This document shows, one piece after another, positions 1-52,400 of a DNA stretch of 64,000 nucleotides. The DNA comes from Spirochaetia bacterium. Lineage in GTDB: Bacteria; Spirochaetota; Spirochaetia; SZUA-6; Bin103. The notes below the pieces were generated by a model. It had not been told where the DNA came from. It saw nothing but the letters and a program-made list of their open reading frames with translations, and made no database searches. A program made the position numbers and the translations under genes. Within the stretch, counting starts at the first letter, position 1, and the number at the start of each line of letters is the position of its first letter. Location of the stretch: contig CBDBDQ010000005.1 in assembly GCA_965203905.1 (NCBI GenBank), forward strand, positions 5,440,001 through 5,504,000, written 5' to 3'.

Positions 1-577
1 AGATGATGGTGGCCACGTCATCGGGCGTTCCCTTGGCTACCTCGGCGCGAAACAGCGCCTCCTGCTGTCCCTGCTCGCCGCCGGCGCGGACCAAGTCCTC
101 CAGGGTGAGCACGTTCAGCCCGTGCCCCTGTGCCTGCTGGCGCGCGGCGTTGGTGAGCTCCGTGGTATCCAGCACGATGGCGGTGGCGAGCTCCGGCAGC
201 CGCTCCTTGATGCCGGCCAGCTTGGCCAGCTGGGCGGCGTTCTCGACGCAGGAGGTCTTGCAGTCGGCGTGGCCCAGGATGTAGGCGATCTCGTCGCCCG
301 TGGAGTCGCTGCCGCGCGGCACGTCCACGGCACCCAGCCCGAGCAGCGCCTGGTCGATCAGCAGCCACTCCTTGCGCGTGTCGCAGATCAATCCCACGTG
401 ATCGCCGCGGGCCACCCCGTTGGCCGCCAGGCCGGCCGCCACCGTGGCTATCTCGGACAGGAGTGCCTGGAATCCGGTGGGCTGGAAGGTGTCTTCGGCA
501 TCCTTGCTGAGCACCGCGACGGCATCGCGGTGGGTCTCGACGACGCGCAGAAGGCGCTGGGAAACGGTATCCGACAT
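1..577 (-). CDS. fadD: Long-chain fatty acid-CoA/ACP ligase (AMP-binding, FadD-like), N-terminal part; runs off the window edge
   Basis: Not in the ORF track. Hand translation from ATG at 577 gives MSDTVSQRLLRVVETHRDAVAVLSK...VAAGLAANGVARGDHVGLICDTRKEWLLIDQALLGLGAVDVPRGSDSTGDEIAYILGHADC...DDVATII, typical of long-chain acyl-CoA synthetases just before the YTSG motif. Confidence 0.88.
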   Translation of the reverse strand, partial: MSDTVSQRLLRVVETHRDAVAVLSKDAEDTFQPTGFQALLSEIATVAAGLAANGVARGDHVGLICDTRKEWLLIDQALLGLGAVDVPRGSDSTGDEIAYILGHADCKTSCVENAAQLAKLAGIKERLPELATAIVLDTTELTNAARQQAQGHGLNVLTLEDLVRAGGEQGQQEALFRAEVAKGTPDDVATII

Positions 578-579
578 GG

Positions 580-1011
580 TTATGCTCCGCGTAGACACAG
601 CCACTCCGCTTCGGCTGCCAACTCGTCACCGACGTACACCTTGCCGCTCTGCCTGATGGCATTGGCACTGCGCCGCCGGGTCGTGACCACGATGCGCGCC
701 TCGTCTCCGGGGCGCACCTGACGCCGAAACTTGGCTTTTTCGATGCTGGCCAGAAAGGTCACCTTGGCCTCATCATCGGCGCCGTCCTCGCCGGCGCCCA
801 GGGCGGCCACGCCGGCACCGCCACACTGCGCCATGCACTCCACCAGCAGGACCCCGGGCACCACCGGGTAGGAAGGAAAGTGGCCGGCGAAGAACGGCTC
901 GTCGGCAGCGAACCGCTTGTAGCCCACGATCTCCTCGGCATCGGCGCGTTCGATCCGGTCCACCAGCAGGAACGGGTGGCGGTGGGGAATCAGCTCGGTG
1001 ATCGGCTGCAT
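580..1011 (-). CDS. fabZ: 3-hydroxyacyl-ACP dehydratase
   Basis: IPHRHPFLLVDRI, FFAGHFPSYPVVPGVLLVE, KFRRQVRPGD motifs; 143 aa. Confidence 0.93.
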   Translation of the reverse strand: MQPITELIPHRHPFLLVDRIERADAEEIVGYKRFAADEPFFAGHFPSYPVVPGVLLVECMAQCGGAGVAALGAGEDGADDEAKVTFLASIEKAKFRRQVRPGDEARIVVTTRRRSANAIRQSGKVYVGDELAAEAEWLCLRGA

Positions 1012-1014
1012 GAC

Positions 1015-2256
1015 TCAGATGATCCCCAGTGCGCGCGCTTGCGTGGCACACACTTCCAGTGCGCGGTCCAGCTCGTCGTCGCTGTGAATCGCCATGTAGG
1101 AGGTGCGAATCAGCGCACTGCCGGGCGGCACCGCCGGACTCACCACGGGGTTGGTATACAGGCCGTTATCCATGAGCGCGCGGTAGAACTGAAAGGTCAG
1201 GGCATCGTCGCCGATGATCAGCGGCACGATCGGCGTCTCGGTGTCGCCCACGTCGAAGCCCAGGCGCTTGAACTCGCGGATCATCCGCTGCCCGATGGCC
1301 TGCAGGCGCTGGGTGTGATGGGGCTCTTCCTTCATGATGCGCAGGGCCGTGGACACCGCGGCGATGGTGGCGGGCGGCATGCTCGCGCTGAAGATGAACG
1401 AGCGCGCGTTGTGCTTGATATGGTCGACCACGTCCGCCTCGCCGGCGATGAAGCCGCCCACGGCGCCGAACGACTTGGAGAAGGTGCACATCAGGACGTC
1501 GGCCGCGTCGTAGCAGTCGAAGTGCTCCTGGGAGCCGCGGCCGGTGGCGCCGATCACGCCCAGGGAGTGGGCTTCATCCACGTACAGGCGGGCGCCGTAG
1601 CGGCGCGCCAGCTCGCCCAGCTCCGGCAGCGGTGCGATGTCGCCGTCCATGGAGAATACGCCGTCGGTGACGATCAACTTGCCGCCCCCGTCGTCCACGC
1701 CGCGCAGCAGGCGCTCCAGGTCCTCCAGATCGTTGTGATGATAGCGGTGGATGCGGGCGCCGCCGACGGTAATGCCGGCGGCCAGGAACATGCCGTCCAT
1801 CAGCGAGCCGTGGTTGAGACGGTCGGAGAACACGTGGTCGTGGCGTCCGACCAGGGCCTGCAGCGCTCCCAGGTTGGTCTGATAGCCGGTGGTGAACGAC
1901 AGCGCCGCGGGCTTGCTCACGAACTCCGCCAGCTCGGCCTCCAGCTCTTCGTGCAGCAGCAACGTGCCGTTCAGGAAGCGCGAGCCGGAACAGCTCGTGC
2001 CATATCGGCGGGTGGCTTCGATCGCCGCCTCGATGACGCGCTCATCCCACGACAGGCCGAGATAGTTGTTGGATCCGATCATGATCAACTCGCGGCCGTC
2101 GATGATCACGCGTGAACCGAGGTTCTCCTGGATGGCGGTGTAGTAGGGATAGAAGCCGATTGCTTTCACCCGCTCCGCCTTGTACTGGGCGTAGGCGCGT
2201 ACTTTCTGGAACAGGTCGGTGGTCGCGTCGCTCGCGGGTGCTTGCTGCATCGTCAT
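1015..2256 (-). CDS. PLP-dependent alpha-oxoamine synthase, most similar to bacterial serine palmitoyltransferase
   Basis: GSNNYLGL, GSRFLNGT, TDGVFSMDGD, DEAHS, TFSKS (PLP lysine), KHNARSFIFSASMPP, NPVVSPAVP; N-terminal G.YPY segment as in Bacteroidota-type SPT. Confidence 0.8.
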   Translation of the reverse strand: MTMQQAPASDATTDLFQKVRAYAQYKAERVKAIGFYPYYTAIQENLGSRVIIDGRELIMIGSNNYLGLSWDERVIEAAIEATRRYGTSCSGSRFLNGTLLLHEELEAELAEFVSKPAALSFTTGYQTNLGALQALVGRHDHVFSDRLNHGSLMDGMFLAAGITVGGARIHRYHHNDLEDLERLLRGVDDGGGKLIVTDGVFSMDGDIAPLPELGELARRYGARLYVDEAHSLGVIGATGRGSQEHFDCYDAADVLMCTFSKSFGAVGGFIAGEADVVDHIKHNARSFIFSASMPPATIAAVSTALRIMKEEPHHTQRLQAIGQRMIREFKRLGFDVGDTETPIVPLIIGDDALTFQFYRALMDNGLYTNPVVSPAVPPGSALIRTSYMAIHSDDELDRALEVCATQARALGII

Positions 2257-2340
2257 CGATTAAGCCTGACGGCATTGTGGTACACCGTATGCAACCGGAT
2301 GTAAAGCTCAGCGTCGCGAGTGGACCGTGCGCCCTGGGTG

Positions 2341-3027
2341 TCAGCCGGGCACGGGCTCACGCCTGGCCAGCGTGCGGAAGAGTTGCTCGAATTCGGGTTC
2401 GTCCCAGCTCCGGGTGCCGATGATGCGGGCCAGGATCGATCCGTCCTTGTCGATGATGTAGCTCATGGGCAGGGTGCGCGCGCCGTAGGTGGCGGCGATT
2501 TCGCCGCTGCTGTCCAGCAGGATCCGGAACGAGAGCTCCAACTCGTCTGCGAAGCCCCGCACCCGTGCGGCGTCCTCCTGCAGGTTGACCGCTATCATGG
2601 CGAACTCCGCCGTGTCGGCGAGACGTTCGTGCAGTGCCTGCATGGCCGGCATTTCGATCCGGCACGGCGCGCACCAGGTTGCCCAGAAGTTGAGGAACAC
2701 CACCGAACCGCGGTAGGAGTCGAGCGAGTGGGTGGTGCCGGCGAGATCCTGCAGATCGAAGCCCACCGCCTGTACCGCGCGGCGCGGCAACTGGAAGCCC
2801 AGTTCCTGCATCAGTGCGTCGATCGTGGCGCCGGCGCTGGGGCTGTCGCCGGCGTCGGGAACGGTGGTGGCGGCAGGCGCGGGCGGCGCTGCGCCGGGCA
2901 CCTGCTCCCTGGCCGCCTCGCGGCGTCCGAACGCCGTGGCAGTGGCGCCGGCGAGGCACACCGCGAGCAGCGCAAGCGCCAGCGTGCGCGAGGCGCCGGG
3001 CGGCCGTCGGATCGGGGGCCGATTCAT
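2341..3027 (-). CDS. TlpA/ResA-family thiol-disulfide oxidoreductase
   Basis: VVFLNFWATWCAPCRIEMP, LPMSYIID; N-terminal signal/TM segment; start chosen at MNRPP. Confidence 0.9.
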   Translation of the reverse strand: MNRPPIRRPPGASRTLALALLAVCLAGATATAFGRREAAREQVPGAAPPAPAATTVPDAGDSPSAGATIDALMQELGFQLPRRAVQAVGFDLQDLAGTTHSLDSYRGSVVFLNFWATWCAPCRIEMPAMQALHERLADTAEFAMIAVNLQEDAARVRGFADELELSFRILLDSSGEIAATYGARTLPMSYIIDKDGSILARIIGTRSWDEPEFEQLFRTLARREPVPG

Positions 3028-3115
3028 GGCGTTGGGACGGTGCGCCCAGGCGCGACGTCCGCAACCTGGTTCGAAGCATTGCATCGATCGTGTGGCATCG
3101 ATAGTAACGGAGCGC

Positions 3116-3808
3116 TCAGGCCGCGAACAAGGTGCCGGTCAGCACCGCCAGGTTGAAGGCGGCGTGGGCCCAGGCGAGGCGGTGTACGGAAGGGCGGTGG
3201 CGGTAGAGGAGGGCGAAGGCGACACCGATCAGCAGGGCGGTGACCGCGGCCAGCCAGCCCTGATACAGGTGACCGAGGGCGAACAGCAGGGCCGAGGTCA
3301 GCACCGCCAGCCACGGCGGAGTGGCGATCTCGTCCAGCACGGTGAGGAGGTAGGCCCGGAAGTAGAGCTCTTCGCGGTAGGCGCTGATCAGCACGAAACC
3401 CAGCGCCAGTGGCACCTGTGCCACGCCCTGCAGCTCCCAGCGATAGCCGCGCAGGAGCGACTCCCGCAACGGATCGGGCAGGGCGCCGGCCAGCAGTGAC
3501 GCCAGCGCCAGCGCAGCTACGATTCCGGCCGCGATGATGCCGGCCTCCGCGGCGTCACGGCCGTGGAACCGCCAGCGGAATCGCCTGCGGCCGCGATCGC
3601 GCAGCATGACCAGCACCAGCACGCCGCTCTGCAAGGCGGCCAGCGCCCCCGCGCTGACCAGCGTGCGCGGTACGCCGAGCCAACCGACCGGCAGCAGCAC
3701 CAGCAGGTACAGCAGGGCCAGCCGTCCCAGTGCCGCCGCCGGAGCGCGCGCGGAGGGAGTCGGCGGCACAGGTCCGGCCGCGGACCCCGAACCGTCGCGG
3801 GAGCGCAT
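3116..3808 (-). CDS. CPBP (CAAX/Abi) intramembrane metalloprotease
   Basis: EELYFR, FALGHLYQG, HAAFN motifs; hydrophobic. Confidence 0.9.
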   Translation of the reverse strand: MRSRDGSGSAAGPVPPTPSARAPAAALGRLALLYLLVLLPVGWLGVPRTLVSAGALAALQSGVLVLVMLRDRGRRRFRWRFHGRDAAEAGIIAAGIVAALALASLLAGALPDPLRESLLRGYRWELQGVAQVPLALGFVLISAYREELYFRAYLLTVLDEIATPPWLAVLTSALLFALGHLYQGWLAAVTALLIGVAFALLYRHRPSVHRLAWAHAAFNLAVLTGTLFAA

Positions 3809-3914
3809 GTGGCGCCATCATACCCGCTGGCGATCGGGCGCGCAGAGTGCCAGCCGACGGCGGCGGGCCAGGCAGACCAAAAAAGCGGCGGCGGAGTTCG
3901 GGCCGTTAAGAACG

Positions 3915-5339
3915 ATGATGGCTGGCGTATTCGCGCACACCCGTGCCGAACCGGCGCTAGTGGTGGCCGCCGCTGCGGTGGCGTATCTGCTGGCGGCCGC
4001 GCATGTCCTGCCCGCTACGGTGAGCGTGGGCGCGGCGCTGCTGCTGGCGGCGCCTGCACTGCTGACCGCCGCCGCTGCCGTGGCGGCGCCGGCGCGGTGG
4101 CGTGGGCGCTGGCTGCTGCTGGCGGCCGCCGCCGGCTGCGCACTGGCGGGCGGCCTGGAGTTGGGCACCCGCCTGTGGCACGCCGGCGGCGGGGCCGGGC
4201 TGCCGCTGGCCGTCGTGGACCAGCTGCACGGGGTGCTGGTCAGGGACGACCGCCCGCGGGGTGCCGCCGCCGGTTACCGCGTTGCGGTGGACCGGGTGGC
4301 GTCCACGCGCCTGGCGGCGCAGGCATCGGCCCGCTTTACCGCCGAACTCACGCTCTCCGTTGCCGGATCCGAACGCGGCTACCGCGGCCGCCGGGTAGTG
4401 GTGAGCGGCGTGACGCTGCATGGCCGGGCTCCGGGCCGCATCGCGGTCTCGGGCGGTGGCCAGCTCACCCTGGCTTCCTACGTGGGGCCGGTGGCCGCCG
4501 TTCGCGCCCGGGCCCGCGCCGCCGTCGAGCGGATGGTGCTGGACCAGGGAGGCCCCGGCGCCGCTCTGCTGCTCGCCCTGCTGCTGGGTGACCGCCATCA
4601 CCTGCGGGCGGAGGAAGTGGAGGCGTTTCGGCGTGCCGGCGCGCTCCACCTGCTGGCGCTGTCGGGACTCCACGTGGGGTTGGTGTATGCGCTGGCCGCC
4701 GCCCTGGGCCGCGGTCTCGGCACGGCCGGCATGCTGCTGGCGCCACGTTGGCAGCGCGGATGGCTGGCCCTGGCCGCGGCGGTCGGCGTGGGCGCGGTGT
4801 TCCTGTACGTGGAGCTGGCCGGCACCCGTCCCTCGCTGGCGCGGGCCACCGTGATGCTGGCGCTGGCGCGGCTGGCGGCCGGCGCGGGCCGTCCGACGCG
4901 CTCCCTCAACGTGCTCGCGCTGTCCGCCATCGTGGTGGTGGCGACCGATCCGCGGGCGGTGCAGGAGCTTTCGTTCCAGCTCTCCTATGCGGCCCTGTTC
5001 GGCATCCTGCAGCTCGGTCCATGGACCGCGCGGCGCCTTCCGGGGTGGCTGCCGCCTGCGCTGCGCTCGGCCGTGGGAATGGCGGTGGGGGCACAGGCGG
5101 CGACCCTGCCGCTGGTGCTCGCCGTGTTCGGCCGGGTGCATCCAATCGGCGTGGTGTCGGGTCTGGTGATGGTGCCGTACACGGCGCTGTTCCTGTGGAG
5201 CGGCATCGCCTGCCTGGCGCTGTCCGAGCTGAGCCGGGGCGCAATGCAGCCGCTCACCCACGACCTGCTGCACCTGTTGTATAGTGGGCTCACGATGCTC
5301 AACGATCTGTTCGGGCAGGTACCGGGTATCCGCTGGTGA
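3915..5339 (+). CDS. comEC: ComEC/Rec2 competence-domain membrane protein, short form without beta-lactamase domain
   Basis: ALLLGDR, FRRAGALHLLALSGLHVG, SFQLSY; overlaps the rsmA start (GTGA); start approximate. Confidence 0.88.
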   Translation: MMAGVFAHTRAEPALVVAAAAVAYLLAAAHVLPATVSVGAALLLAAPALLTAAAAVAAPARWRGRWLLLAAAAGCALAGGLELGTRLWHAGGGAGLPLAVVDQLHGVLVRDDRPRGAAAGYRVAVDRVASTRLAAQASARFTAELTLSVAGSERGYRGRRVVVSGVTLHGRAPGRIAVSGGGQLTLASYVGPVAAVRARARAAVERMVLDQGGPGAALLLALLLGDRHHLRAEEVEAFRRAGALHLLALSGLHVGLVYALAAALGRGLGTAGMLLAPRWQRGWLALAAAVGVGAVFLYVELAGTRPSLARATVMLALARLAAGAGRPTRSLNVLALSAIVVVATDPRAVQELSFQLSYAALFGILQLGPWTARRLPGWLPPALRSAVGMAVGAQAATLPLVLAVFGRVHPIGVVSGLVMVPYTALFLWSGIACLALSELSRGAMQPLTHDLLHLLYSGLTMLNDLFGQVPGIRW

Positions 5340-6232
5340 ACCACAACTCGCCGGCCGAGGTACGCGCCGCGCTGCGGCGCCTCGGCGTGGAGCCGAAGAA
5401 ACGCTGGGGCCAGAACTTCATGCTCAACCCACGCACCAGGAGCAAGCTGGTGACCACGCTGGGGCCGCGGGCCGGGGACACCGTGTGGGAGATAGGGCCC
5501 GGGCTCGGCGCCGTGACCGGCGAGTTGCTGCCGCGCTGTGCGCGACTGGTGCTGTTCGAGATCGACCATGGCCTGATCCGGCATCTGCAGAAGGAGCTGG
5601 CGGACCATGCTCACGTGGCAATCGTGCCGGGAGACTTTCTGCGTACCTGGCAGCAGGCCCGCGCCGAGCATGGTCGGCCGGATCGGATCATCGGCAACCT
5701 GCCCTACAGTTGCTCATCCGCGATCATCGCCGCGCTGGTGCAGCACGATGCCATTCCCGCGAACTGTGTGTTCACCGTCCAGCGCGAACTGGCCGAGCGG
5801 CTCGTGGCAACCCCGGGTACGCGCAACTACTCCTCGCTTTCGGTGCTGTGCCAGTGTCTCAGCAAGATCTCGGCGCATGGCGATCTGGCGCCGGGAACCT
5901 TTTATCCCGTGCCGGAGGTGACCTCGGCCGTCATCGAGCTGCGCCCCCGCACAGACAATCGCCGAGTGAGCAATCGCTCCGTGTTGTTCGCGCTGATCCG
6001 CGCGGCGTTCCAGACGCGGCGCAAGACCCTGCGCAACAATCTGCTGTCGCAGGGCGGCTTCGGGCTGAGCAAGGGAGAGCTTCTGGATGCGGTGGAAGCC
6101 GCCCGCGTGGATGCCGGCTGTCGGGCCGAGGAGCTGGCCCCCGCCACCGTCATCCGGCTGGCGAATGCGCTGGCCGCGGCAGGAGCGGTGGTGGAAGCCG
6201 TGGACCCGCTCGCCGAGGAAGCTCCAGACTGA
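5336..6232 (+). CDS. rsmA: 16S rRNA adenine dimethyltransferase
   Basis: KKRWGQNFM, EIGPGLG, GNLPY, FYPVPEVTS, RRKTLRNNL. Confidence 0.96.
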   Translation: MNHNSPAEVRAALRRLGVEPKKRWGQNFMLNPRTRSKLVTTLGPRAGDTVWEIGPGLGAVTGELLPRCARLVLFEIDHGLIRHLQKELADHAHVAIVPGDFLRTWQQARAEHGRPDRIIGNLPYSCSSAIIAALVQHDAIPANCVFTVQRELAERLVATPGTRNYSSLSVLCQCLSKISAHGDLAPGTFYPVPEVTSAVIELRPRTDNRRVSNRSVLFALIRAAFQTRRKTLRNNLLSQGGFGLSKGELLDAVEAARVDAGCRAEELAPATVIRLANALAAAGAVVEAVDPLAEEAPD

Positions 6233-6286
6233 CGGGCCGGCGGATCGACGCGCTGGCGATCGGTCCGCTGGCCGTGACGTTGGGGG

Positions 6287-7165
6287 TCAGTCCAGGCCGT
6301 ACTCATCCAGCACGGTGCGCAGCTTCGCCTTGGCCGAATCGGTGAGGGGAGTCATCGGCAGGCGGTAGCTCTCTTCGAGCAGGCCGGCCAGGTGCATCGC
6401 GCCCTTGAGCGGGATGGGATTGGTGTCCAGGCCCATGAGGGCACTGATCACCGGCAGCAATTCGTAGTGGACGGCGCGTGCGCCCGCGGTATCGCCGGCC
6501 AGCATGCAGTCCACCAGCGCCACCATCCGCTCCGGCAGCAGGTTGCTGGTGACCGAGATCACGCCGTTGCCTCCCAGGGCCATCAGGGGCAGGGTGATTT
6601 CGTCGTCCCCGGACAGCACCGTGAATCCCTCCGGCCGCTGCCGGATCAGATCCATCATCTGCTTGAAGTCGCCGCTGGCCTCCTTGACCCCGACGATGTT
6701 GGGGTGCTCGGCCAGCGCCAGCATGGTCTCGTTGTCGATGTTCTTGCCGGTGCGTCCGGGGATGTTGTAGACGACGATGGGCAGATCCACGCTGTCGGCG
6801 ATGAGCTGGAAGTGACGCAGGAAGCCGCTGGGCGAAGGCTTGTTGTAGTAGCCGGCAACGTGCAGGCTGGCCTCGGCGCCTACCTCCTTGGCCAGCCTGG
6901 TGTGCTCCAGTGCCTCGACCGTGTTGTTGGAGCCGCAGCCGGCGATCACCGGCACCCGACCGGCGGCCTGCTCCACCACCAGCCGGATCACCTCGTGATG
7001 TTCGTCGTTGGTCAGCGTCGGACTCTCGCCGGTGGTGCCGACCGGAACCAGGCCGGTGATGCCGGCGGCGATCTGCCGCTCCACCAGCGCCTTCAGAGTG
7101 TCCCGGTCCAACTCACCCGACGCCGTGAACGGCGTCACCAATGCGGTAAAGGTTCCTTCGAACAT
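6287..7165 (-). CDS. dapA: 4-hydroxy-tetrahydrodipicolinate synthase
   Basis: ALVTPF, GTTGES, YNIPGRTG, GVKEASG, TNPIPLK. Confidence 0.96.
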   Translation of the reverse strand: MFEGTFTALVTPFTASGELDRDTLKALVERQIAAGITGLVPVGTTGESPTLTNDEHHEVIRLVVEQAAGRVPVIAGCGSNNTVEALEHTRLAKEVGAEASLHVAGYYNKPSPSGFLRHFQLIADSVDLPIVVYNIPGRTGKNIDNETMLALAEHPNIVGVKEASGDFKQMMDLIRQRPEGFTVLSGDDEITLPLMALGGNGVISVTSNLLPERMVALVDCMLAGDTAGARAVHYELLPVISALMGLDTNPIPLKGAMHLAGLLEESYRLPMTPLTDSAKAKLRTVLDEYGLD

Positions 7166-7260
7166 AGTCTGCCTCCTCGGCGCGAAACCGGTTGTCGCCT
7201 GCGGGTACCCAGCCTAATCCGGGGACGGCTCGGCGGCAACCCGGCGCGCTCTTCAGCTCT

Positions 7261-8016
7261 TCAGCCCACCATTTCGTTGATCAGGTCGTCGATGTCGTAG
7301 ATGCCGGTCTTGCGCGGCTCGGCCGTGAGCCAGGCGGCGCCGCGCAACGCCCCGGCAGCCAGCGCGGCCCGCCCGCGCGCCCGGTGGGTCAGCTCGATGG
7401 TGTCGTCGAGGGAATCGAACACCAGCGTATGGGTGCCGGGGTCTTCGCCGCCGCGCACCGCGGCCACGTGCAGCTCGTCGGCGTCGATCTGGCGGTCCAG
7501 GCGTTCGGTCGCCACCCGCGCCTTGCGCGAGCTGGAGCCCAGCACCGCCTGCGCCAGGCTGAGGGCGGTGCCGGACGGCGAGTCCGCCTTACGCCGGTGG
7601 TGGCGCTCGAAGATGGCCAGGTCGTAGTCGTCGAACGGGTCCAGGAGGGCCGTGGCGTGCGCCGCCAGGCGCATGAACAGTTGCACCCCCAGGGAGAAGT
7701 TGGTGGCGTGCAGGTAGCCGCTGGAGCCGCCGGCGACGATGGCGCTCACCTGGTCCAGCCGCTCGCCCCAGCCGGTGGTGCCGACCACGGCGCTGAGACC
7801 GAACTCGACGTAGCGGCGGGCATTCTCGACCACGCCCTCGGCGCTGCTGAATTCGATGGCGACGTCGGCGCCGGCAGCGACGTCGGCGCTCAGCTCGGTG
7901 GCGTCGGCGTCCTCCGCGACCGGGTCGATGCGCGCCGTTACCTCGTGCCCGGCGGCCAGCGCCGCGTGGCAGGCCTCGCGGCCCATGCGGCCGTAACCGA
8001 CTATGGCGATCCTCAT
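7261..8016 (-). CDS. dapB: 4-hydroxy-tetrahydrodipicolinate reductase
   Basis: GYGRMG, VVGTTGW, NFSLGV, ERHHRRKADSPSGTA. Confidence 0.95.
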   Translation of the reverse strand: MRIAIVGYGRMGREACHAALAAGHEVTARIDPVAEDADATELSADVAAGADVAIEFSSAEGVVENARRYVEFGLSAVVGTTGWGERLDQVSAIVAGGSSGYLHATNFSLGVQLFMRLAAHATALLDPFDDYDLAIFERHHRRKADSPSGTALSLAQAVLGSSSRKARVATERLDRQIDADELHVAAVRGGEDPGTHTLVFDSLDDTIELTHRARGRAALAAGALRGAAWLTAEPRKTGIYDIDDLINEMVG

Positions 8017-8135
8017 GGCCGCCATCATACCCGGCCGCGGCGCTCCGGCCAAGGAAGCGTCATGCCGCCCGGGACGGCGGTGGAGCGGCGCCCAGCGGCG
8101 CCCGGCGCGTCTTGCGGGGGGCGGGACGCGTCCTT

Positions 8136-8906
8136 ATGATGCGGGCCGTGCAGGTGGGCATCTACGGCCTGGGGCGCTTCGGCGTGTTCTGGGCCGGGCA
8201 GTTGGCTCGTCACTTCACCGTATACGCGTACTCGCGCCGCCTCCATCGGCCCCCGGTCGGCGTCCGCATGGTGTCGGAACGCCGTGTCTTGCGCTGTCCG
8301 GTGGTGATTCTGTGCGTCGCCATTTCCGCGCTGGAGGAGGTGGTCGACCGCATCGCCCCGCATCTCGGGCCGCACACCCTGGTCATGGACACCTGCTCCA
8401 TCAAGGGCTTCGCCGCGCGGGTGATGGAGCGCCGGCTGCAACCTCCGGTGCAGATTCTCGCCACCCATCCGATGTTCGGCCCCGACTCGGCACGCAACGG
8501 GATCGCCGGCCAGCCGATGATCCTCTGTCCGGTGCGCATCTCCGGCGCGCTGTTGCGCGAGTGGCAGACGCGCTTTGCGGCCATGGGACTGCGGGTGGTG
8601 ATGATGACGGCGGAGCAGCACGACCGCGAAGCGGCGTTCACCCAGGGCATCACCCATTACCTGGGGCGGGTGCTGGCGGAGATGGGCCTGGGCGAGTCCA
8701 CCATCTCCACCGTCGGCTACCGCAAGCTGCGCGAGATCATGGAGCAGACCTGCAACGACTCGCTGCAGCTGTTCCTCGACCTGCAGCGCTACAACCCGTT
8801 CACCGCCGAGATGAGGGCGCGGCTGGAGGACGCCCTGAGCGCGGTACGCTCCCAGCTCGACACCCCGCCCGACCACCGGTCTCCCCACCATCGTTCATCG
8901 CGTTGA
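8136..8906 (+). CDS. tyrA: Prephenate/arogenate dehydrogenase
   Basis: GLGRFG, DTCSIK, THPMFGP, EQHDREAAFTQGITH. Confidence 0.9.
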   Translation: MMRAVQVGIYGLGRFGVFWAGQLARHFTVYAYSRRLHRPPVGVRMVSERRVLRCPVVILCVAISALEEVVDRIAPHLGPHTLVMDTCSIKGFAARVMERRLQPPVQILATHPMFGPDSARNGIAGQPMILCPVRISGALLREWQTRFAAMGLRVVMMTAEQHDREAAFTQGITHYLGRVLAEMGLGESTISTVGYRKLREIMEQTCNDSLQLFLDLQRYNPFTAEMRARLEDALSAVRSQLDTPPDHRSPHHRSSR

Positions 8907-8953: not shown

Positions 8954-9026
8954 GGGCCGCTAGCTCAGTAGGTAGAGCAACAGCCTTTTAAGCTGTGGGT
9001 CGACGGTTCGAATCCGTCGCGGCTCA
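8954..9026 (+). tRNA. tRNA-Lys(UUU), CCA not encoded
   Basis: Acceptor stem GGGCCGC/GCGGCTC+A, D-arm AGCTCAGTAGGTAGAGC, anticodon stem ACAGC-CTTTTAA-GCTGT, T-loop GGTTCGAATCC. Confidence 0.97.
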
Positions 9027-43451: not shown

Positions 43452-46400
43452 GTGGACAGTAACCAGTGGATCAAGATGCGTATCGTTATCAACGACACGC
43501 GTGAGCGCACCTCACGGCGTGTCCGTACGCCCATTGCGGCGTCTCTTTTTGGCAAGAAAACAGCTTCTCCGGTGCCCCATGGCGCAGCCGCTGACGCTCG
43601 AGACCCTTTGCCCGGTTCTTCCGGAGCGCCGGACGTATTTCCTGACAACACTTCCAGGTCGCCGTCCGGCAATTACGTAGCGGCGCACCTGCCAAGCCCC
43701 CGGATACGCTCCGGGAATCTCTGGAAATACCCTCGCGCGCGCGCATTGCGCGCCCTGCTCATGGTCGCCGCGTTCGGCGCGGGGCACGTCGTACACGCCC
43801 AACCAGATGCCGAATCCGGCCCACCGACTGCCTCGCATGCCGCGTTCGGCGGCTCCGGGATGGCGCAACTCGGCAGTCGTCCGCTGCCCCACGTGCAGCT
43901 TCCGGACAGCACGGTGCCGGGCAGCGACCTCCTGCGCCGAGCTCTGCTGACGACCGGCACCGCCGTCTCCACGACAGCCAATCCGCGGATCGTGGAGGTG
44001 AGCCTCGACTCCGACTTCGGGAACCGGCGCTGGTACCCGCCGCGGCGCCGGATCGCGGTAGCGGTGAAGTTCGACCGCCCGGTGCGGGTCAGCACATTCG
44101 CCGGAACGCCGTGGATAGGGCTCAGCCTGGGAACCCAGCCGCTCGGCCGCGCGAGCTACGTGGCCGGCTCCGGATCGAAGGAGTTGATCTTTCATCTGGT
44201 GGTCGCGGACCGGAACCAGGACCTCGATGCGGTCGCGGTGGCGGCGAACTCCTTGAATCTGAACGGCGGCCTTATCCGGCAGCGGGCTTCGCTGGTGGAT
44301 GCGAGCCTGGCTCACGGCGCGGTGGCGGGGAGACTGGACAATGCGATCACTCGGTTGGAGACCCCCTTCGTCACTGACCTGGTCGCTGGGGCGGACGGCC
44401 CGCACCACGCCGTCGAAGGTCAGCCGCCTTCGGCCGAGGTGATCTTCGGTCGGGATCTCGCGCTGGCGTCCGGCAGTGTGCGGACCCCGCTCCCCGGGCT
44501 CGACTTCCAGAGTGAAGTGCGGCTTGCCCGCCACCCTGGCGCCGCACCTGCCGGGATGGCGGCGGCGGCGACCCCTCAGGCCCACGTCGACCAGTTGCGA
44601 GCCGCCGAGTCGGTGCTCGCCGCGGCACGCAGTTACCGCGTTGCGCCCGCCGGCAGCGAAGAGGCGGCCGCAAGCTCCAACACCCTGAGGGCAGCCAGTT
44701 CCCCGCCAAGAACCCCCTTTCTGTCCGCGTTCGCATATGGACAGTCGCGGATCGCTCTTCAATGGAGCAATTTGAGGGACAACAGAGTCACCGAGTATAT
44801 GCTCGAATTCTCCGATGATGGCGAGACAACCTGGGAGACCCTGCCCTACGTGGACGGCGAGGGAACCGAGCACGACACGCATCCCCCGGCCACCCGGCCG
44901 ACGAGCAACAAGTTCGACGACGACGGACTCGACCCCGGCACCACCCGCCACTACCGGGTCAAGGCGCTTACCAGCGATCCAGCAGTAGAGAGTGAGTGGT
45001 CGCGGGTGGTGAGTGCGACCACCAATTCCATGGTGTCGGTTGCTGAATGCAGCGCGGCGTTCTGGTCGGCCGAGATTACCGTGAGCGAGTTCGGGGCGTT
45101 CAACTACCTGGGTTTCCGCATCGATGGTGGGACTCCGAATGGTGACGGATCGATCTCCGACGGCGACTTCACGCTGGGAGCGACCGAGTACACGGTCACC
45201 GAGGTCTACTTTTCTGGCGGTAGGGGATACTACAACAGCCCCCCGGACTATCACTTCGCGGCCGATGACGATCCGTCGTCGGATACCGACTTTTCGCAGG
45301 CCCAGCTCGACGAGTTCAACGACCTCGTGCTGTACGTGGGCGACGTCCGTCTTCCCTTTGCCGGCGTTACCGCCCACAGCAACCAGTCGTACGGCCACGC
45401 CTACCGGTGGACTTCATACAACTACGAAGACACCTTCGGCTCCCCGGACGGCGACTACATAGTCGGCGACCGGGTGCCGGTGTGTCTGATCGACACCTCG
45501 CCACGGGTAACGCTGAAGCTGACCCCCGATTCGATCAGCGAGAACGGCGGCGCCAGCACCGTGACGGCTACCGTGAGCAGCGCGTCGAGCACCCCGTTTG
45601 CCGTGACCGTTTCGGCGGCGGCGGTTTCGCCGGCAACTGCGAACGACTTCACCTTGAGCAGCAACAAGGTGCTGAGCTTCGCCGCCAACGCCACCGAGAG
45701 CACCGGCACCGTGACCATCACCGCGCGGAACAACACGCTGGATGCGCCCGACAAGACAATCACGGTGTCAGGCAGCGTTCCCGACAGCGCTCCGGCGAAG
45801 GCCCCGGCAGACGTGACCCTGGCTATCACCGACGACGAGGAACTGACGCTGAGCGTTACGGCGAGCCCGGACACGATCGCGGAGAACGGGGGCACAAGCA
45901 CCGTGACGGTGAGCACCGGCGGCGTGACCTTCGCCATCGCTCAGACGATCGATCTGGCCTACGGCGGCACCGCTGGCAGCGGGACCGACTACGCCGCGCC
46001 GCCGGCGTCGCTGACGCTGACCGCCGGGCAGAGCACCGTTACGGCCACGTTGCGGGCGCGGGACGACGCCATCGACGATGACGCGGAGACGATCGAGATC
46101 ACGGCCACGTACGGGGGCCAGACGGCACAGGAGACGGTAACGATCACCGACGACGACGCGGCGACGCTGAGCGTGACCGCGAACCCGGACGCGATCGCGG
46201 AGGCGGGAGGTACGAGCACGGTGACGGTGAGCACCGGCGGCGTGACCTTCACCACCGCTCAGACGATCACCCTGACCTATGCCGGTACGGCGGGCAAGGG
46301 GACCGACTACGAGGAGCCCGTGGCGAGCGTGCCGCTGCCGGTCGGGGATCACACGGCAACGCTGACGTTGACGGCGAAGGACGACACGGTCGACGACGAC

Positions 46401-49400
46401 GGCGAGACGATCGAAATCACCGCTGAGCACGGAGGCCAGACGGCGCAGGACACGGTGACCATCACCGACGACGATGAGACGACACTGAGCGTGACGGCGG
46501 TGCCGGACGCGATCGCGGAGGCGGGAGGTACGAGCACGGTGACGGTGAGCACCGGCGGGGTGACCTTCGCCACCAATCAGACGATCGTGCTGGCCTATGG
46601 CGGCACGGCGGCCAACGGAACCGACTACGAGGCACCGCCGGCGACGCTGACACTGACCGCCGGAGCAAGTACGGCGACGCTGACACTGACGGCGAAGGAC
46701 GACACGATCGACGACGACGCGGAGACGATCGAGATCACTGCCACGCACGGGAGCAACACGGCGCGGGAGACGGTGACCATCACCGACGACGACGCGGTGA
46801 GGCTGAGCGTGACGGCGGTGCCGGACGCGATCGCGGAGGCGGGAGGTACATCTACCGTGACGGTGAGCACCGGCGGGGTGACCTTCGCCACCAATCAGAC
46901 GATCGCGCTGGCCTATGGCGGCACGGCGGCCAACGGAACCGACTACGAGGCACCGCCGGCGACGCTGACGCTGACGGCGGGACAGAGCACGGCGACGCTG
47001 ACGCTGACGGCGAAGGACGACACGATCGACGACGACGCGGAGACGGTCGAGATCACTGCCACGCACGGGAGCAACACGGCGCGGGAGACGGTGACGATCA
47101 CCGACGACGACGCGGTGACGGTGTCGATAGCGGACGCGGATCCCGTGGTCGAGGGTGGCACGGCCAGGTTCGTGGTGAGTTTGAGCACGTCCAGCACGAA
47201 GCAGGTGACCGTGACCTACATGACCGCGGACGGCACGGCGCTGCAGCCTGGGGACTACACGGCGGTGCCGAGCACGACGCTGGAGTTCGCGCCCGGAGAC
47301 ACGACGAAGACGATCAGCGTCGCGACCGAGGATGACGAGCTGGACGAGGAGGACGGCGAGACGTTCAAGGTGACGCTGAAGAGTCCCGTGAATGCGACGC
47401 TGGAGGATGACGAGGCCGCGGGCTCGATCGATGACAACGACGGAGAGCCGGAGCTGTCGCTCCTATCGGTAACCCGGAGTCTGTCCGAGAGCGGCGGCAG
47501 CATGACCTTCACCGTGACCCTCAGCGCCGCCAGTGGAAAGACGGTGACCGTGGACTATGCGACCGTGGCCGACACGGCGACGGCCGTCGACGACTACGTA
47601 GAGACCAGTGGCACGCTGACCTTCAAACCCGGCGCTCCCCTCAGCAGCAGCATTCTCGTGCCGATCCAGCCGGACACGCTGAACGAGGCGGACGAGACGT
47701 TCAAGCTGCGATTGAGCAACGCGGACAACGCGACGCTCGACGGTGGCGGGAGCACGCTGGATGCGACCGGAACGATCTCGGACGATGACGCCCTGCGGGC
47801 GAGGATCAGCGAGCACGCCGACAGCGTCCCCGAGGGAACGGCGGCGACGTTTACGGTGACGCTGTCGAGCACTCCTGCCGGTGTCGAGAGCACGGCCGAC
47901 GTGGTGGTGGTCTACACGTTGGGTGGCACTGCCACCAGCGCCGACTACACCGCACCGAGCGATCTCAAGCTGACGATCGGTTCCGGGGAGTCGAGCGGCA
48001 CGATCACCATTCCGACCAGCACCGACAGCGTGCTGGACCCGGGCGAGACGATCGTGGTGACGCTGACGTCGGCAAGCACGGCGGGCGCGGTGACGGTGGA
48101 CGCGACGGCGGCGACGACGACGCTGGTGGAGGACGGCACCGAGACGGTGTCGGTGGCGGCGGCGACGGCCACCGAGGGGAACGCGGCGAATTTCGTGGTG
48201 ACGCTGTCAGGTGCGGTGAGCAGCGCGGTGGAGGTGTCCTACGAGACCAGCGACGGGAGCGCCGAGGCCGGCAGCGACTACACCGGCGTCAACGACACGC
48301 TGACCTTCAGGGTGGGCGAGAGCCTGCAGCAGACGATCGCGGTGACCACGACCGACGACACGCTCAACGAGGCAACCGAGAACTTCACGCTGACGCTGAC
48401 GTCGATTACGCAGGTGGCTGGTTTGCGCCTGGGGACGGCGAATGCGACCGGTGAGATCACGGACAACGACGCGCTGGAAGCGGAGGTGAGCGCGGATGCG
48501 ACGGAGGTGGACGAAGGCAATCCGGCGACGTTCACGGTGAGCCTGACGGCGGGAATCGAGAGCACGGCGCCGGTGGAGGTGCGCTACACGGTAGGGGGCA
48601 CGGCGGGCAGCCACGACTACACCGCACCGAGCGGCACGTTGGTGATTGCGAAGGGAGAATCGAGCGGCACGATCACGATCGCGATTGACGACGACGACGT
48701 GGTGGATCCGGGCGAGACGCTGGAGGTGACGCTGAGCGCGGCGACGACGGCGACGCGGACGGTGACGGTGGACACCACGGCAGCGGCGAGCACCACGATC
48801 ACGGACACCGACACGGCGACGATTTCGATTGCGGAAGCGGCGGCGGTGGGCGAAGGTGAGACGGCGCGCTTCGTGGTAACACTGTCGTTGCCGGTGGCGA
48901 GCGCGGTCGAGGTCTCCTATGAATCCTCCGACGGGACGGCCACGGCGGGCAGCGACTACACGCGCGCCAGCGGTACGCTGACCTTCGGACCGGGTAAGAG
49001 CCTGCAACAGACGATCGCGGTGGACGCGACCGACGACAAGCTCAACGAGGCAAGCGAGGACTTTACGCTGGCGCTGACGTCGATTACGCAGGTGGCCGGC
49101 CTGAGTCTGGGGACGGCGAGCGCGACCGGTGAAATAACGGACAACGACGCGCTGGCGGCGAGGGTGAGCGCTGACGCCACCGATGTCGACGAAGGCAGCG
49201 CGGCGAAGTTCACGGTGAATCTTACGGCCGGCATCGAGAGCACGGCACCGGTGGAGGTGCGCTATACCGTTGGGGGGACGGCGGGCAGCGACGACTACAC
49301 CGCGCCGAGCGGAACGCTGGTGATCGCGCAGGGAGACGCGAGCGGCACCATCACCATCGACATTGCGGATGATGACGTGCTGGACCCGGACGAGACGATC

Positions 49401-52400
49401 GGGGTGACGCTGACATCGGCGACGACGGCGACGCGGACGGTGGAGGTGGACACCACGGAGGTGGCGAGCACCACGATCACCGACACGGACACGGCGAAGA
49501 TCTCGATCGCGGATGCGGGGTCGGTGGACGAGGGCGACACCGCGCGTTTCGAGGTGACGATGTCGACTGCGGCAGCTCGTGACGTGGTGCTCTCCTACAG
49601 AACCTGGGACTTTTCGGCGCAGGCCGGATCGGACTACCGGGCCAAGGACGACACGCTGACGCTCGCCGCGGGCACCACGAGCGCGACGATTGCCGTTGAG
49701 ACGATCCACGACACGCACAACGAGGCCGCCGAGAACTTCACCGTGACGTTGACGCTCGACACCCAGGTGGAAGGGTTGAGCGTAGAGAACGGCAGCGCGA
49801 CGGCGGAGATTACGGACAACGATGCGTTGCGGGCGGCGATCAGCGAGCACGCCGACAACGTCCCCGAGGGAACGGCGGCGACGTTTACCGTGACGCTGTC
49901 GAGCACTCCGCCCGGTGTGGCGAGCACGACCGACGTGGTGGTGGTCTACACCGTAGGCGGCACCGCGACCAGCGACGACTACACCGCACCGAGCGATCTC
50001 AAGCTGACCATCGATTCCGGGGAGGAGAGCGGCACGATCATCATCCCGACCAGCACCGACAGCGTGCTGGACCCGGGTGAGACGATCGTGGTGACGCTCA
50101 CGTCGGCCAGCACGGCGGGCGCGGTGACGGTGGACGCGACGGCGGCGACGACCACGCTGGTGGAGCAAGGCACCGAGACGGTGTCGGTGGCGGCGGCGAC
50201 GGCCACCGAGGGAGCCGCGGCAAACTTCGTGGTGACCCTGTCGGGTGCGGTGAGCAGCGTGGTGGAGGTGTCCTACGAGACCTCCGACGGGAGCGCCGAA
50301 GCGGGCAGCGACTACACCGGCGTCAACGGCACGCTGACCTTCGGCGTGGGCGAGAGCCTGCAGCAGACGATCGCGGTGGACACGACCGACGACACGCTCA
50401 ACGAGGCAACCGAGAGCTTCACGCTGACGCTGACGTCGATTACGCAGTTGGCCGGCCTGAGTCTGGGCACGGCGAGCGCGGCCGGTGAGATCACGGACAA
50501 CGACGCACTGGCGGCGACGGTGAGCGCGGATCAGAGCAGCGTGAACGAGGGGGACGCGGCGGAGTTCACGGTGAATCTTACGGCCGGCATCACCAGCACG
50601 GCGCCGGTGGAGGTCAGCTACACGTTAGGTGGCACGGTCGGCAGCGCCGACTATACCGCGCCTGCCAGCCCGTTGACGATCGCGAAGGGAGCGGCGAGCG
50701 GCACGATCACGATCGCCGTCGCGGATGACGAAGTGCTGGATCCGGGCGAGACGCTGGAGGTGACGCTGAGCGCGGCGACGACGGAGACGCGGACGGTAGA
50801 GGTCAGCGCCACGGCGGCGAGCACCACGATCACGGACACCGACACGGCGACCGTGGCGATAGCGAACGCGACGGTAACCGAAGGCGACACGGCGAGGTTC
50901 GCGGTGACGCTGTCGCTGCCGGTGGCCAGTGCGGTCGAGGTCTCCTATCAGACCGCGCAAGGCAGCGCGCTGCCCGGCACCGGCAATGACTACCTGACGC
51001 ACAGCGGTACGTTGATCTTCAGGCCCGGTGAGAGCCTGCAGCATACCATCGAGGTGACGACGGTCGAGGACGAGCTCAACGAGGCGGACGAGATTTTCAC
51101 CGTGACGCTGACGCTGGACAGCCGGGTCGACGGGCTGACCCTGGAGACCGCCAGCGCCACGGGCACCATCGAGGACGACGACGCCGTGCCCGAGCTGGCG
51201 TTGACGTCGGTGACCCAGCGTCTGGCCGAGGGCGGCGGCAACATGACCTTCACGGTCAGCCTGGGCGCGGCCAGCAGTCGGATCGTGACCGTGGACTATG
51301 CAGCCGTAGACGGTACCGCGACGGCGGAAAAGGACTACGCCGTGACCCGCGGCACGCTGACCTTCCGCCCCGGGGAGAATCGCCAGCGCAGCATCGAGGT
51401 GACGATCCTCGACGATGACATGGACGAGGATGACGAGACCTTCGCGCTGCGGCTGAGCAACGCGACCAATGCGACGCTGGCCGGCGGCGGCGAGACCCTG
51501 GCGGCCACCGGCACGATCGAGGATGATGACGTGCTGCAGGCGGCGGTGAAGGCGGACGCGCTCACCGTGGCGGAGAGCAATCCGGCCACCTTCACCGTGG
51601 AGCTGACCGGCGGCACCAGCATGGCGGAGGTGCTGGTTGCCTATACCGTGAGCGGAACGGCCACCGCCGGCGCCGACTACACGGCGCCGGGCGGAATCCT
51701 GCGAATCACGGAGGGCGCCGCGAGCGGTACCATCACCATCCAGACGCTGGCTGACGACCTGCTGGATGCGGGCGAGACGCTTGAGGTGAAGCTGGTCTCG
51801 GCGAGCAGCGGCACGCGGCCGGTCATCGTCGACACCACGGCGGTCGCGACCACGACGATTGCGGATACGGATACGGAGACCGTCTCGATCTCGGATGCGG
51901 CGGCCGCTGAAGGCGATACCGCCAGCTTCGACGTGACACTGTCGGGCGCCGTCGCGAGTCCGGTCGAAGTGCCGTATGAGACTTCCAGCGGCACGGGAGC
52001 CACCGACGCGGGGGCGGGCGTCGACTACACCGTGACCCGCGGAACCCTGACGTTCGAACCCAACGGGGTGCGCGAGCAGTCGATCAGAGTGGCGACCAGC
52101 GAGGACAGCCTGAACGAGGCGAACGAAACCTTCACGGTGACCTTGACGAGCTCGGGTCTGCCCGACGGGGTGAGTCTGGGCACGGCCAGCGCTACCGGCA
52201 CCATCAACGATGATGACCCGCAGGAGGCGCGGGTCGGCGCCAACGCCGTGAGCGTGACGGAAGGCGGTGCGGCGACCTTTGCCGTAACCCTGACCGGCGG
52301 CACCAGCACCGCTGACGTGGAGGTCGCCTACACGGTCGGCGGCACGGCGACCGCAGGCACCGACTACACCGCGCCCGGTGGCACGCTCACGATCGCCGCC

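Follow-up and report, generated by a model that had tools for sequence, protein, structure and literature searches.

A candidate serine palmitoyltransferase gene ahead of housekeeping fabZ and acyl-CoA ligase genes in a spirochaete genome

The DNA considered here, called the window, is a stretch of 64,000 nucleotides from a Spirochaetia bacterium, positions 5440001-5504000 of contig C5 in an assembly (G000; GenBank GCA_965203905.1) of 7.99 Mb in 5 contigs, with 66% G+C, a completeness of 98.7% and a contamination of 7.9%. Three closely packed genes lie at its left edge, the first of them encoding an alpha-oxoamine synthase that resembles serine palmitoyltransferase (SPT; the gene is called spt below and its product Spt-like). 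A preliminary description, made from the letters of the window, took the three to be an operon of a candidate sphingolipid or aminolipid pathway. The genes are these:

1015-2256, minus strand: Spt-like alpha-oxoamine synthase, 413 aa (PF00155 at 4e-54), a candidate serine palmitoyltransferase of the acyl-CoA type
580-1011, minus strand: fabZ, 3-hydroxyacyl-ACP dehydratase, 143 aa (PF07977; NF000582 FabZ at 137.5 bits, over the cut-off of 113)
2-604, minus strand: long-chain fatty-acid--CoA ligase, the N-terminal 192-201 aa of a 645-aa protein (PF00501), with the remainder left of the window at G000:C5:5438667-5440000

The three genes are co-directional and 2-3 nt apart, as had been described, and all stand on the minus strand. 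The synthase gene and fabZ are separated by 3 nt (1012-1014). The spacing between fabZ and the ligase depends on where the latter starts: a 2-nt gap follows from ATG 577, the likelier start, and a 25-nt overlap from GTG 604. The suggestion that the genome is that of a spirochaete is borne out by its relatives. The five nearest genome records, whose synthases are 82-86% identical, are titled as metagenome-assembled genomes of Spirochaetia, Spirochaetales or Spirochaetaceae, and many proteins 60-65% identical to the synthase bear Spirochaetia names.

The synthase among oxoamine synthases

The preliminary description picked out four motifs, TFSKS, GSRFLNGT, KHNARSFIFSAS and NPVVSPAVP, all of which are found in the synthase translation, and judged the protein to be closer to the SPTs of Sphingobacterium and Bacteroides than to BioF or Kbl. 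Scores from NCBIfam and from the Protein Data Bank (PDB) agree with that judgment. The best NCBIfam model is NF047600 (SerpalmtaseCFB, the Bacteroidota-type SPT), at 470.7 bits against a cut-off of 640, and the second is NF047599 (beta-proteobacterial SPT), at 380.9 bits against a cut-off of 500. Models of the BioF/Kbl type give 378.3 bits, 377.8 (bioF; cut-off 426.45) and 360.6 (Kbl; cut-off 460), and the alpha-proteobacterial SPT model NF047603 gives 295.6 (cut-off 670). The lead of SPT over the BioF/Kbl models is thus about 90 bits. The SPT equivalog models are designed for Bacteroidota and Proteobacteria.

A sequence search of the PDB gives a similar picture. The best match is the SPT of Sphingobacterium multivorum (SmSPT; 3A2B/8GUH), at 381.5 bits, which exceeds the best non-SPT chain by about 107 bits. 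Below it stand Thermus BioF/Kbl (274.4 bits), Sphingomonas SPT (247.6), Kbl (231.8), BioF (221.9), the cysteate fatty acyltransferase (CFAT) 28eh (208.4), SulA 7u7h (195.8), ALAS (187.6) and CqsA (105.1).

Then there is the active site. The residues of SmSPT that contact pyridoxal 5'-phosphate (PLP) or L-serine, as named in the structural account of that enzyme (PMC10196870), were read by eye from an alignment to the PDB chain, in which the chain index plus 1 equals the number used in the paper (verified on Phe13, Ile15 and Tyr27). Fourteen of the 15 are identical in the synthase: Asn52, Gly80, Ser81, Phe83, Leu84, His138, Ser185, Asp210, Ala212, His213, Thr241, Ser243, Lys244 and Phe272. The lysine of TFSKS aligns with Lys244, which binds PLP. 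The one substitution is Met271 to Ile, at a residue whose contact in SmSPT is described as a main-chain one (PMC10196870).

With SmSPT and the proteins of NF047600, then, the synthase shares a similar length and the blocks T-F-S-K-S, GSRFLNGT, KHNARS..FSAS and NPVVSPAVP. It has no adjacent gene for an acyl carrier protein (ACP) and does have an acyl-CoA ligase beside it, an arrangement that fits the use of acyl-CoA. It differs from them in scoring below the cut-off of 640, in the change at Met271 and in having a spirochaete host, and it is known here from its sequence. With BioF and Kbl it has fold and chemistry in common, and the automatic name that JGI gives to its homologues is 8-amino-7-oxononanoate synthase. 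It differs from these enzymes in its lower scores against them and in its context: no bio or tdh genes are found in the roughly 10 kb scanned on each side of the locus, which upholds what had been said of the neighborhood. Moreover, the genome has a separate BioF-like paralogue at C5:7779411-7780445, whose best match is bioF (339.1 bits). This is one of two further oxoamine synthases in G000, and against the SPT model neither scores more than about 316-317 bits. Judged by its sequence, the 413-aa protein is closer to the Bacteroidota-type SPT than to BioF or Kbl, and the spirochaete gene that encodes it is a genuine and well-conserved Spt-like one.

fabZ and the ligase

The preliminary description had also made fabZ and the ligase a dedicated module that modifies or activates the acyl group for the synthase. 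This part of it did not survive a look at the rest of the genome and at other genomes. fabZ is the sole match to PF07977 and the sole tblastn match in the ~8-Mb genome. The genome's other fatty-acid synthesis genes, fabH (C5:2459989), a fabF-like synthase gene (C5:2464252) and an SDR/fabG gene between them (SDR, short-chain dehydrogenase/reductase), lie about 3 Mb from it. As the only gene of its family, fabZ must therefore be the housekeeping dehydratase.

No other close copy of the ligase gene exists in G000; apart from it, the search there met only an AMP-binding gene at C5:1.688 Mb, with 28% identity. The full protein scores best in NCBIfam with a FadD11-type model (256.6 bits) and with the PRK06187 long-chain ligase (255.7 bits), both below cut-off, and its PDB matches are acyl/aryl-CoA ligases. 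Its orthologues (E<=1e-100, 40-50% identical) were sought in a sample of 401 Spirochaetota genomes and occur in 230 of them, including all of families f2 (50/50), f5 (8/8) and f20 (75/75) and most of f25 (35/38). The synthase query finds no match in three of these families (f5, 0/8; f20, 0/75; f25, 0/38). In genome G030, fabZ (65% identical) lies directly upstream of the ligase gene and the Spt-like gene is 1.3 Mb off. The gene before the ligase is a CPBP gene in locus L090 and a TlpA-like gene in L091.

Within the window's own lineage, and only there, the order CPBP-TlpA-spt-fabZ-ligase-AAA_26/DRTGG is kept: all six genes are found in L002, L003, L005 and L006 (75-90% identity) and the last four in the partial locus L004. 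Twenty more distant spirochaete loci, picked by synthase score alone (44-58% identical), have heterogeneous neighbors: neither fabZ nor the AAA_26/DRTGG gene is near the synthase gene in any of them, and the ligase gene is close in just one (L043, about 4 kb away). I conclude that fabZ and the ligase are ordinary single-copy fatty-acid genes and that the locus gives no sign of a new pathway or chemistry. On the simplest view, the fabZ-ligase unit is the older one and spt came to be set ahead of it.

Three metatranscriptomic libraries, belonging to two studies, yield contigs that cover the ligase, fabZ and synthase genes at about 93-96% identity, and two of these contigs bridge gene junctions (synthase-fabZ and fabZ-ligase). 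They carry the sequence of a relative, the libraries may contain DNA, and the contigs show no single transcript. Most of 2341-2600 and 2861-3900 is left uncovered in the runs X18 and X19, and 261-520 and 3511-3900 in X20, a sponge metatranscriptome run with only pieces that are 90-96% alike; these gaps are not read as silence. The contigs show at most that RNA libraries contain a locus of this kind. Further sequencing runs with small shares bear the labels sponge, coral or marine and are not counted as evidence of habitat. When the operon was scanned for promoters and terminators, no boundaries emerged: there were 0 promoter-like sites, and the 3 terminator-like sites all lay on the plus strand and did not outnumber those in shuffles.

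No PP-binding (ACP) gene lies in the operon, and the five matches in the genome are all elsewhere. In this the locus differs from a dedicated acyl supply for Spt of the AcpR plus AasR type: it has no specialized ACP, and its ligase is of a single-copy, phylum-wide housekeeping type.

Two very long open frames, at G000:C5:230865-244762 (3431 aa) and C5:7180328-7187239 (2385 aa), combine ketoacyl-synthase and PP-binding domains, which gives the genome megasynthases of the polyketide or polyunsaturated fatty acid type. An 825-aa frame at C5:1687617-1689425 apparently has both AMP-binding and PP-binding matches.

Candidate partners and the proposed route

The ceramide genes of Caulobacter crescentus are given as spt, acpR, aasR (for an acyl-ACP synthetase), cerR and bcerS (PMC11324152, PMC11087976). 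In bacteria more widely, Spt, the acyltransferase bCerS and the reductase CerR are described as often but not always clustered (PMC11087976, PMC11324152, PMC11334938). The preliminary description proposed a look for partner genes of this kind to the left of the window. They are not there; candidates do exist, 3.3 Mb away on the same contig. The lead comes from genomes G006 and G069, in which a protein of 385-400 aa with a weak GNAT match is encoded 15-87 nt downstream of the Spt-like gene. These proteins match one place only in G000, with 34-38% identity and E values of 2e-73 to 8e-93, and the gene found there is divergent to a second candidate:

G000:C5:2109633-2110838: GNAT-like N-acyltransferase, 401 aa, candidate bCerS
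C5:2108638-2109618: epimerase-family reductase, 326 aa (PF01370 at 9e-32), divergent to the GNAT-like gene, candidate CerR

In NCBIfam the reductase scores best with HpnA and with OleD, a 2-alkyl-3-oxoalkanoate reductase, and it reaches the cut-off of neither. For the GNAT-like protein the ESM Atlas offers generic "N-acetyltransferase" clusters only, and its counterparts in loci L053 and L054 have no NCBIfam family.

The two genes that are so far apart in G000 stand together in 13 other spirochaete genomes, at 12-150 nt in 8 loci and at 0.9-3.1 kb in 5 more. Two of these loci come from the 20 picked by synthase score, and the other 11 were fetched since both genes were already on one contig. 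The GNAT-like gene is present in 132 of the 401 genomes. Synthase and GNAT-like genes occur together in 115, the synthase alone in 38, the GNAT-like gene alone in 17 and neither in 231; these genomes are related and are not independent counts, so a Fisher value overstates the association. If the synthase match is restricted to E<=1e-100, 68 genomes remain, of which 63 have the GNAT-like gene. The five exceptions are G030, G094 and G230 (all family f3), G110 (f4) and G361 (89% complete).

A quick IQ-TREE analysis of 41 oxoamine synthases from the fetched loci (the partial L004 omitted, three over-long rows trimmed) places the window lineage (support 100) within a clade of 30 rows (SH-aLRT 88), among which are 7 of the 13 GNAT-linked synthases. 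The nearest neighbors of the lineage there are from f3 and f12. The six GNAT-linked synthases of f41 form a separate, deeper clade (support 100), and the next group outside the 30-row clade includes the synthases of the Spt-SDR-GNAT operons in L067 and L068. Both paralogues from G000 fall outside the 30-row clade, the BioF-like one serving as outgroup and the other sitting on a very long branch.

Other spirochaetes arrange these genes differently. Loci of f41 (L063, L071) have AMP-binding, ACP, Spt-like and GNAT-like genes in a row, a layout like that of Caulobacter. This operon encodes an AMP-binding ligase of 610 aa, an ACP of 104 aa, an Spt-like protein of 397 aa and a GNAT-like protein of 376 aa (L063, 6443-11093; L071, 10846-11160), is found in genomes G291, G352 and others, and belongs to the second, deeper Spt-like clade. 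In f52, locus L067 (G183; 2097-8652) encodes an Spt-like protein, a classical SDR (273 aa), a GNAT-like protein, a 646-aa protein without a family and a GT1 glycosyltransferase. L067 was scanned for families, and L068 (G258) has a like layout as judged by gene position. From its gene content, the f52 operon may direct the synthesis of a glycosylated sphingolipid, with an SDR in place of the epimerase-type reductase. In G020 the neighbors of spt are lpxK, kdtA and a flippase-like LPG_synthase_TM gene, and in f11 the GNAT-like gene stands beside fabD- and fabF-like genes. The complete genomes G332 and G380 show this last neighborhood.

In genus g2, whose genomes of about 2.8 Mb are mostly single contigs, 8 of 9 genomes (G015, G042, G065, G085, G166, G205, G215 and G284) have an unlinked pair, a 40% identical synthase and a 30% identical GNAT-like protein. 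The ninth has the synthase only. In the tree, a long branch separates the g2 synthase from the main Spt-like clade, outside which it falls.

I propose, from gene order, gene families, residue conservation, copy numbers, linkage and co-occurrence, that the window holds a gene for an acyl-CoA-type Spt, served by unlinked bCerS- and CerR-like genes and standing beside a housekeeping fabZ-ligase pair. This is probably the right explanation, though I would not put it more strongly; the substrates, the product, the identities of bCerS and CerR and the co-transcription of the operon are what it predicts. By this model, Spt would form 3-ketodihydrosphingosine by condensation of L-serine and a long-chain acyl-CoA, and the unlinked GNAT-like N-acyltransferase and epimerase-family reductase would then complete a dihydroceramide, as in the published Spt-bCerS-CerR route. 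With spt placed ahead of fabZ and the ligase gene, the synthesis of long-chain bases would probably be co-expressed with the synthesis and activation of fatty acids. The ligase could furnish the acyl-CoA without being a dedicated partner. The network fits the published ceramide route, in which Spt, the acyltransferase and the reductase are often, and not necessarily, clustered. The synthase would very probably catalyze the opening reaction of a ceramide-type pathway, the other genes of which lie apart from it: a known kind of pathway in a new example. I infer that the GNAT-like gene may encode a bCerS and the reductase gene a CerR.

The likeness to Caulobacter is broad. There too Spt is found near an acyl-activating AMP-binding enzyme, and the broad classes to which the N-acyltransferase and the reductase of Caulobacter belong are represented in the genome of the window as well. 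The differences are that the operon here has no dedicated ACP, that its ligase is a pan-spirochaete one, that 3.3 Mb separates spt from the candidates for acyltransferase and reductase and that the synthase scores so low with the alpha-proteobacterial model NF047603. The type of inference is also that of Ding et al. 2024, who recognize an Spt-like clade through clustering with known Spt and through co-location with bCerS and CerR, the latter not being a requirement, and who predict Spt-like proteins from metagenomes in 38 bacterial phyla (PMC11334938). The main text of that paper has 0 occurrences of spirochaetes, its list of phyla being in a supplement outside the text searched. Literature searches on spirochaetes and SPT, sphingolipids or ceramide synthases brought up no report or prediction of sphingolipid synthesis in spirochaetes, in line with the earlier statement that none is established. 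Where the matching literature names spirochaetes, the subject is inositol lipids, the absence of lipid A (some have none; PMC9393093) or microbiome correlations. A search on bCerS and GNAT yielded nothing but spurious matches to "BceRS".

Several observations weigh against the proposal. The synthase falls under the curated cut-off of every NCBIfam equivalog that it matches, SPT included. The tree of 41 synthases has no characterized Spt, BioF, Kbl or HemA in it, so that the grouping with SPT comes from hidden Markov model and phmmer scores and from gene linkage. At E<=1e-30 no GNAT-like gene is found in G030, G094 or G230, whose synthases (58% identity) are the closest to this one outside its own lineage, and because of these three an Spt-like enzyme of this clade can evidently exist without a GNAT partner. 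As to the partners themselves, neither the GNAT-like protein nor the reductase matches a named NCBIfam model of bCerS or CerR function, and the former has only a weak match to Acetyltransf_1 and nothing significant in a sequence search of the PDB. The epimerase-like gene adjoins the GNAT-like gene, again divergently, in just 2 of the 21 other loci that have the latter (L078 and L081). A classical SDR replaces it in L067, the 274-aa gene at the same position in L068 probably encodes another, and an SDR gene is found beside the synthase gene in L042. Finally, the candidate reductase starts directly with its Rossmann motif, whereas the CerR of Caulobacter is reported to be periplasmic (PMC11087976).

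What else might the locus be doing? One alternative restores the module of the preliminary description: the ligase activates a particular long-chain acid, the dehydratase modifies it (to a 2-enoyl form, for example) and the synthase condenses it with serine, yielding an unusual sphingoid base or aminolipid. The 2-3 nt spacing would suit such a module, as would the six-gene order kept in four relatives (the last four genes in L004) and, weakly, since the libraries may contain DNA, the RNA-library contigs of a 93-96% identical relative that bridge both junctions. This reading nonetheless fails, because the fabZ in question is the only one in the genome, the ligase is pan-spirochaete and the fabZ-ligase pair exists without spt in G030. 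The only FabA/FabZ-family gene, alongside fabH, fabG and fabF, must serve general fatty-acid synthesis. The ligase, lacking a second close copy, is found in 230 of 401 genomes, including families with 0 synthase matches, and in the 20 distant loci neither gene adjoins the synthase gene, with only L043 having the ligase as near as 4 kb. I regard the dedicated module as improbable.

A different view is that the synthase makes something else, either as an enzyme of the BioF/Kbl type or as one that forms a long-chain base from glycine or alanine (a 1-deoxy base) or a non-ceramide aminolipid, the GNAT/reductase pair being unrelated. This would explain the missed equivalog cut-offs, the f3 relatives without a GNAT-like gene and the 3.3 Mb between synthase and GNAT-like gene in the genome itself, and, according to the account of SmSPT, SPTs can use Ala and Gly as well, with low efficiency (PMC10196870). 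It has more difficulty with the score margins (about 90 bits against the BioF/Kbl models, about 107 against the best structure that is not an SPT), with the conserved serine-contacting residues, with the separate BioF-like paralogue and the want of bio or tdh genes nearby, and with the GNAT-like gene in 63 of the 68 genomes that have a close synthase homologue. I consider it unlikely, though less so than the dedicated module. The amino acid could also be cysteate, as the preliminary description allowed, in which case the enzyme, of the same superfamily, would start the synthesis of a sulfonolipid of the capnine type. Chains of CFAT (28eh) and SulA (7u7h) score 208.4 and 195.8 bits, the 196-208 range, as against 381.5 for SPT, and the pocket residues of SmSPT are kept. 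Cysteate is a most improbable substrate because CFATs are described as a distinct branch with a remodeled pocket (PMC13692747).

If the genes work as I propose, a sizeable part of Spirochaetota would join the bacterial producers of sphingolipids, a part that appears to exclude the sampled families with small or host-restricted genomes. Several complete genomes carry the genes. It is possible, though I offer it tentatively, that ceramide-type sphingolipid synthesis is a widespread and unrecognized trait of free-living and symbiotic Spirochaetota, in at least three layouts, with spt spliced into the core fabZ-ligase unit in one of them. The three may be the layout of the window, linked to an acyl-CoA ligase, that of f41, linked to an AMP-ligase and an ACP, and that of f52, linked to an SDR. 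If spt was indeed spliced into a core unit in a sponge- or marine-associated lineage, then the synthesis of long-chain bases would be tied transcriptionally to the bulk supply of fatty acids. The main value of the window is a correction, that the striking fabZ and ligase genes are housekeeping ones; the wider value comes from the phylum-wide distribution.

Surrounding genes and other observations

The other features of the minus-strand unit and its surroundings are as follows:

2341-3084, minus strand: TlpA/ResA-like thiol-disulfide oxidoreductase (PF00578, PF08534; NF002854 ResA at 109 bits, below cut-off)
3116-3808, minus strand: CPBP (Rce1-like) intramembrane protease (PF02517), the first possible gene of the minus-strand unit
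3534-5339, plus strand: ComEC (PF03772), divergent, bounding the minus-strand unit upstream
8954-9026, plus strand: tRNA gene, the sole Rfam match in the window
G000:C5:5437489-5438670 (L001, 17489-18670), minus strand: AAA_26/DRTGG protein, 393 aa, downstream of the ligase and just left of the window

The TlpA/ResA-like gene lies 84 nt upstream of the synthase gene and is possibly co-transcribed with it. Upstream of the synthase the neighbors are the CPBP protease, the TlpA/ResA-like protein, ComEC, RrnaAD, DHDPS, DapB, PDH_N and GH32. Downstream they are AAA_26/DRTGG, MR_MLE, rhaM and an ABC permease, the MR/MLE-family gene opening a rhamnose/sugar block.

The start of the AAA_26/DRTGG gene overlaps the stop of the ligase gene by 4 nt. 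The protein, with its AAA_26 domain and a weak DRTGG match, stands alone and is like the N-terminal, non-catalytic half of phosphate acetyltransferase only. It occupies the same place throughout the window's lineage (79-93% identical) and is absent from 10 other ligase loci examined. A sequence search of the PDB found no relative of it.

An oxoamine-synthase domain 43% identical to the synthase ends a frame of more than 1300 aa in L007, a record of Cyanothece sp. (2707-3900). Short AMP-binding-like matches flank the domain on both sides, and it is probably embedded in a polyketide synthase or nonribosomal peptide synthetase.

Far to the right in the window, at 43452-62180 on the plus strand, lies a single frame of 6242 aa. 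Calx-beta repeats make up nearly all of it, with at least 37 stretches matched across its two halves. The composition profile shows a strong AT skew (0.19-0.23) and GC skew over this frame, which probably encodes a giant surface adhesin.

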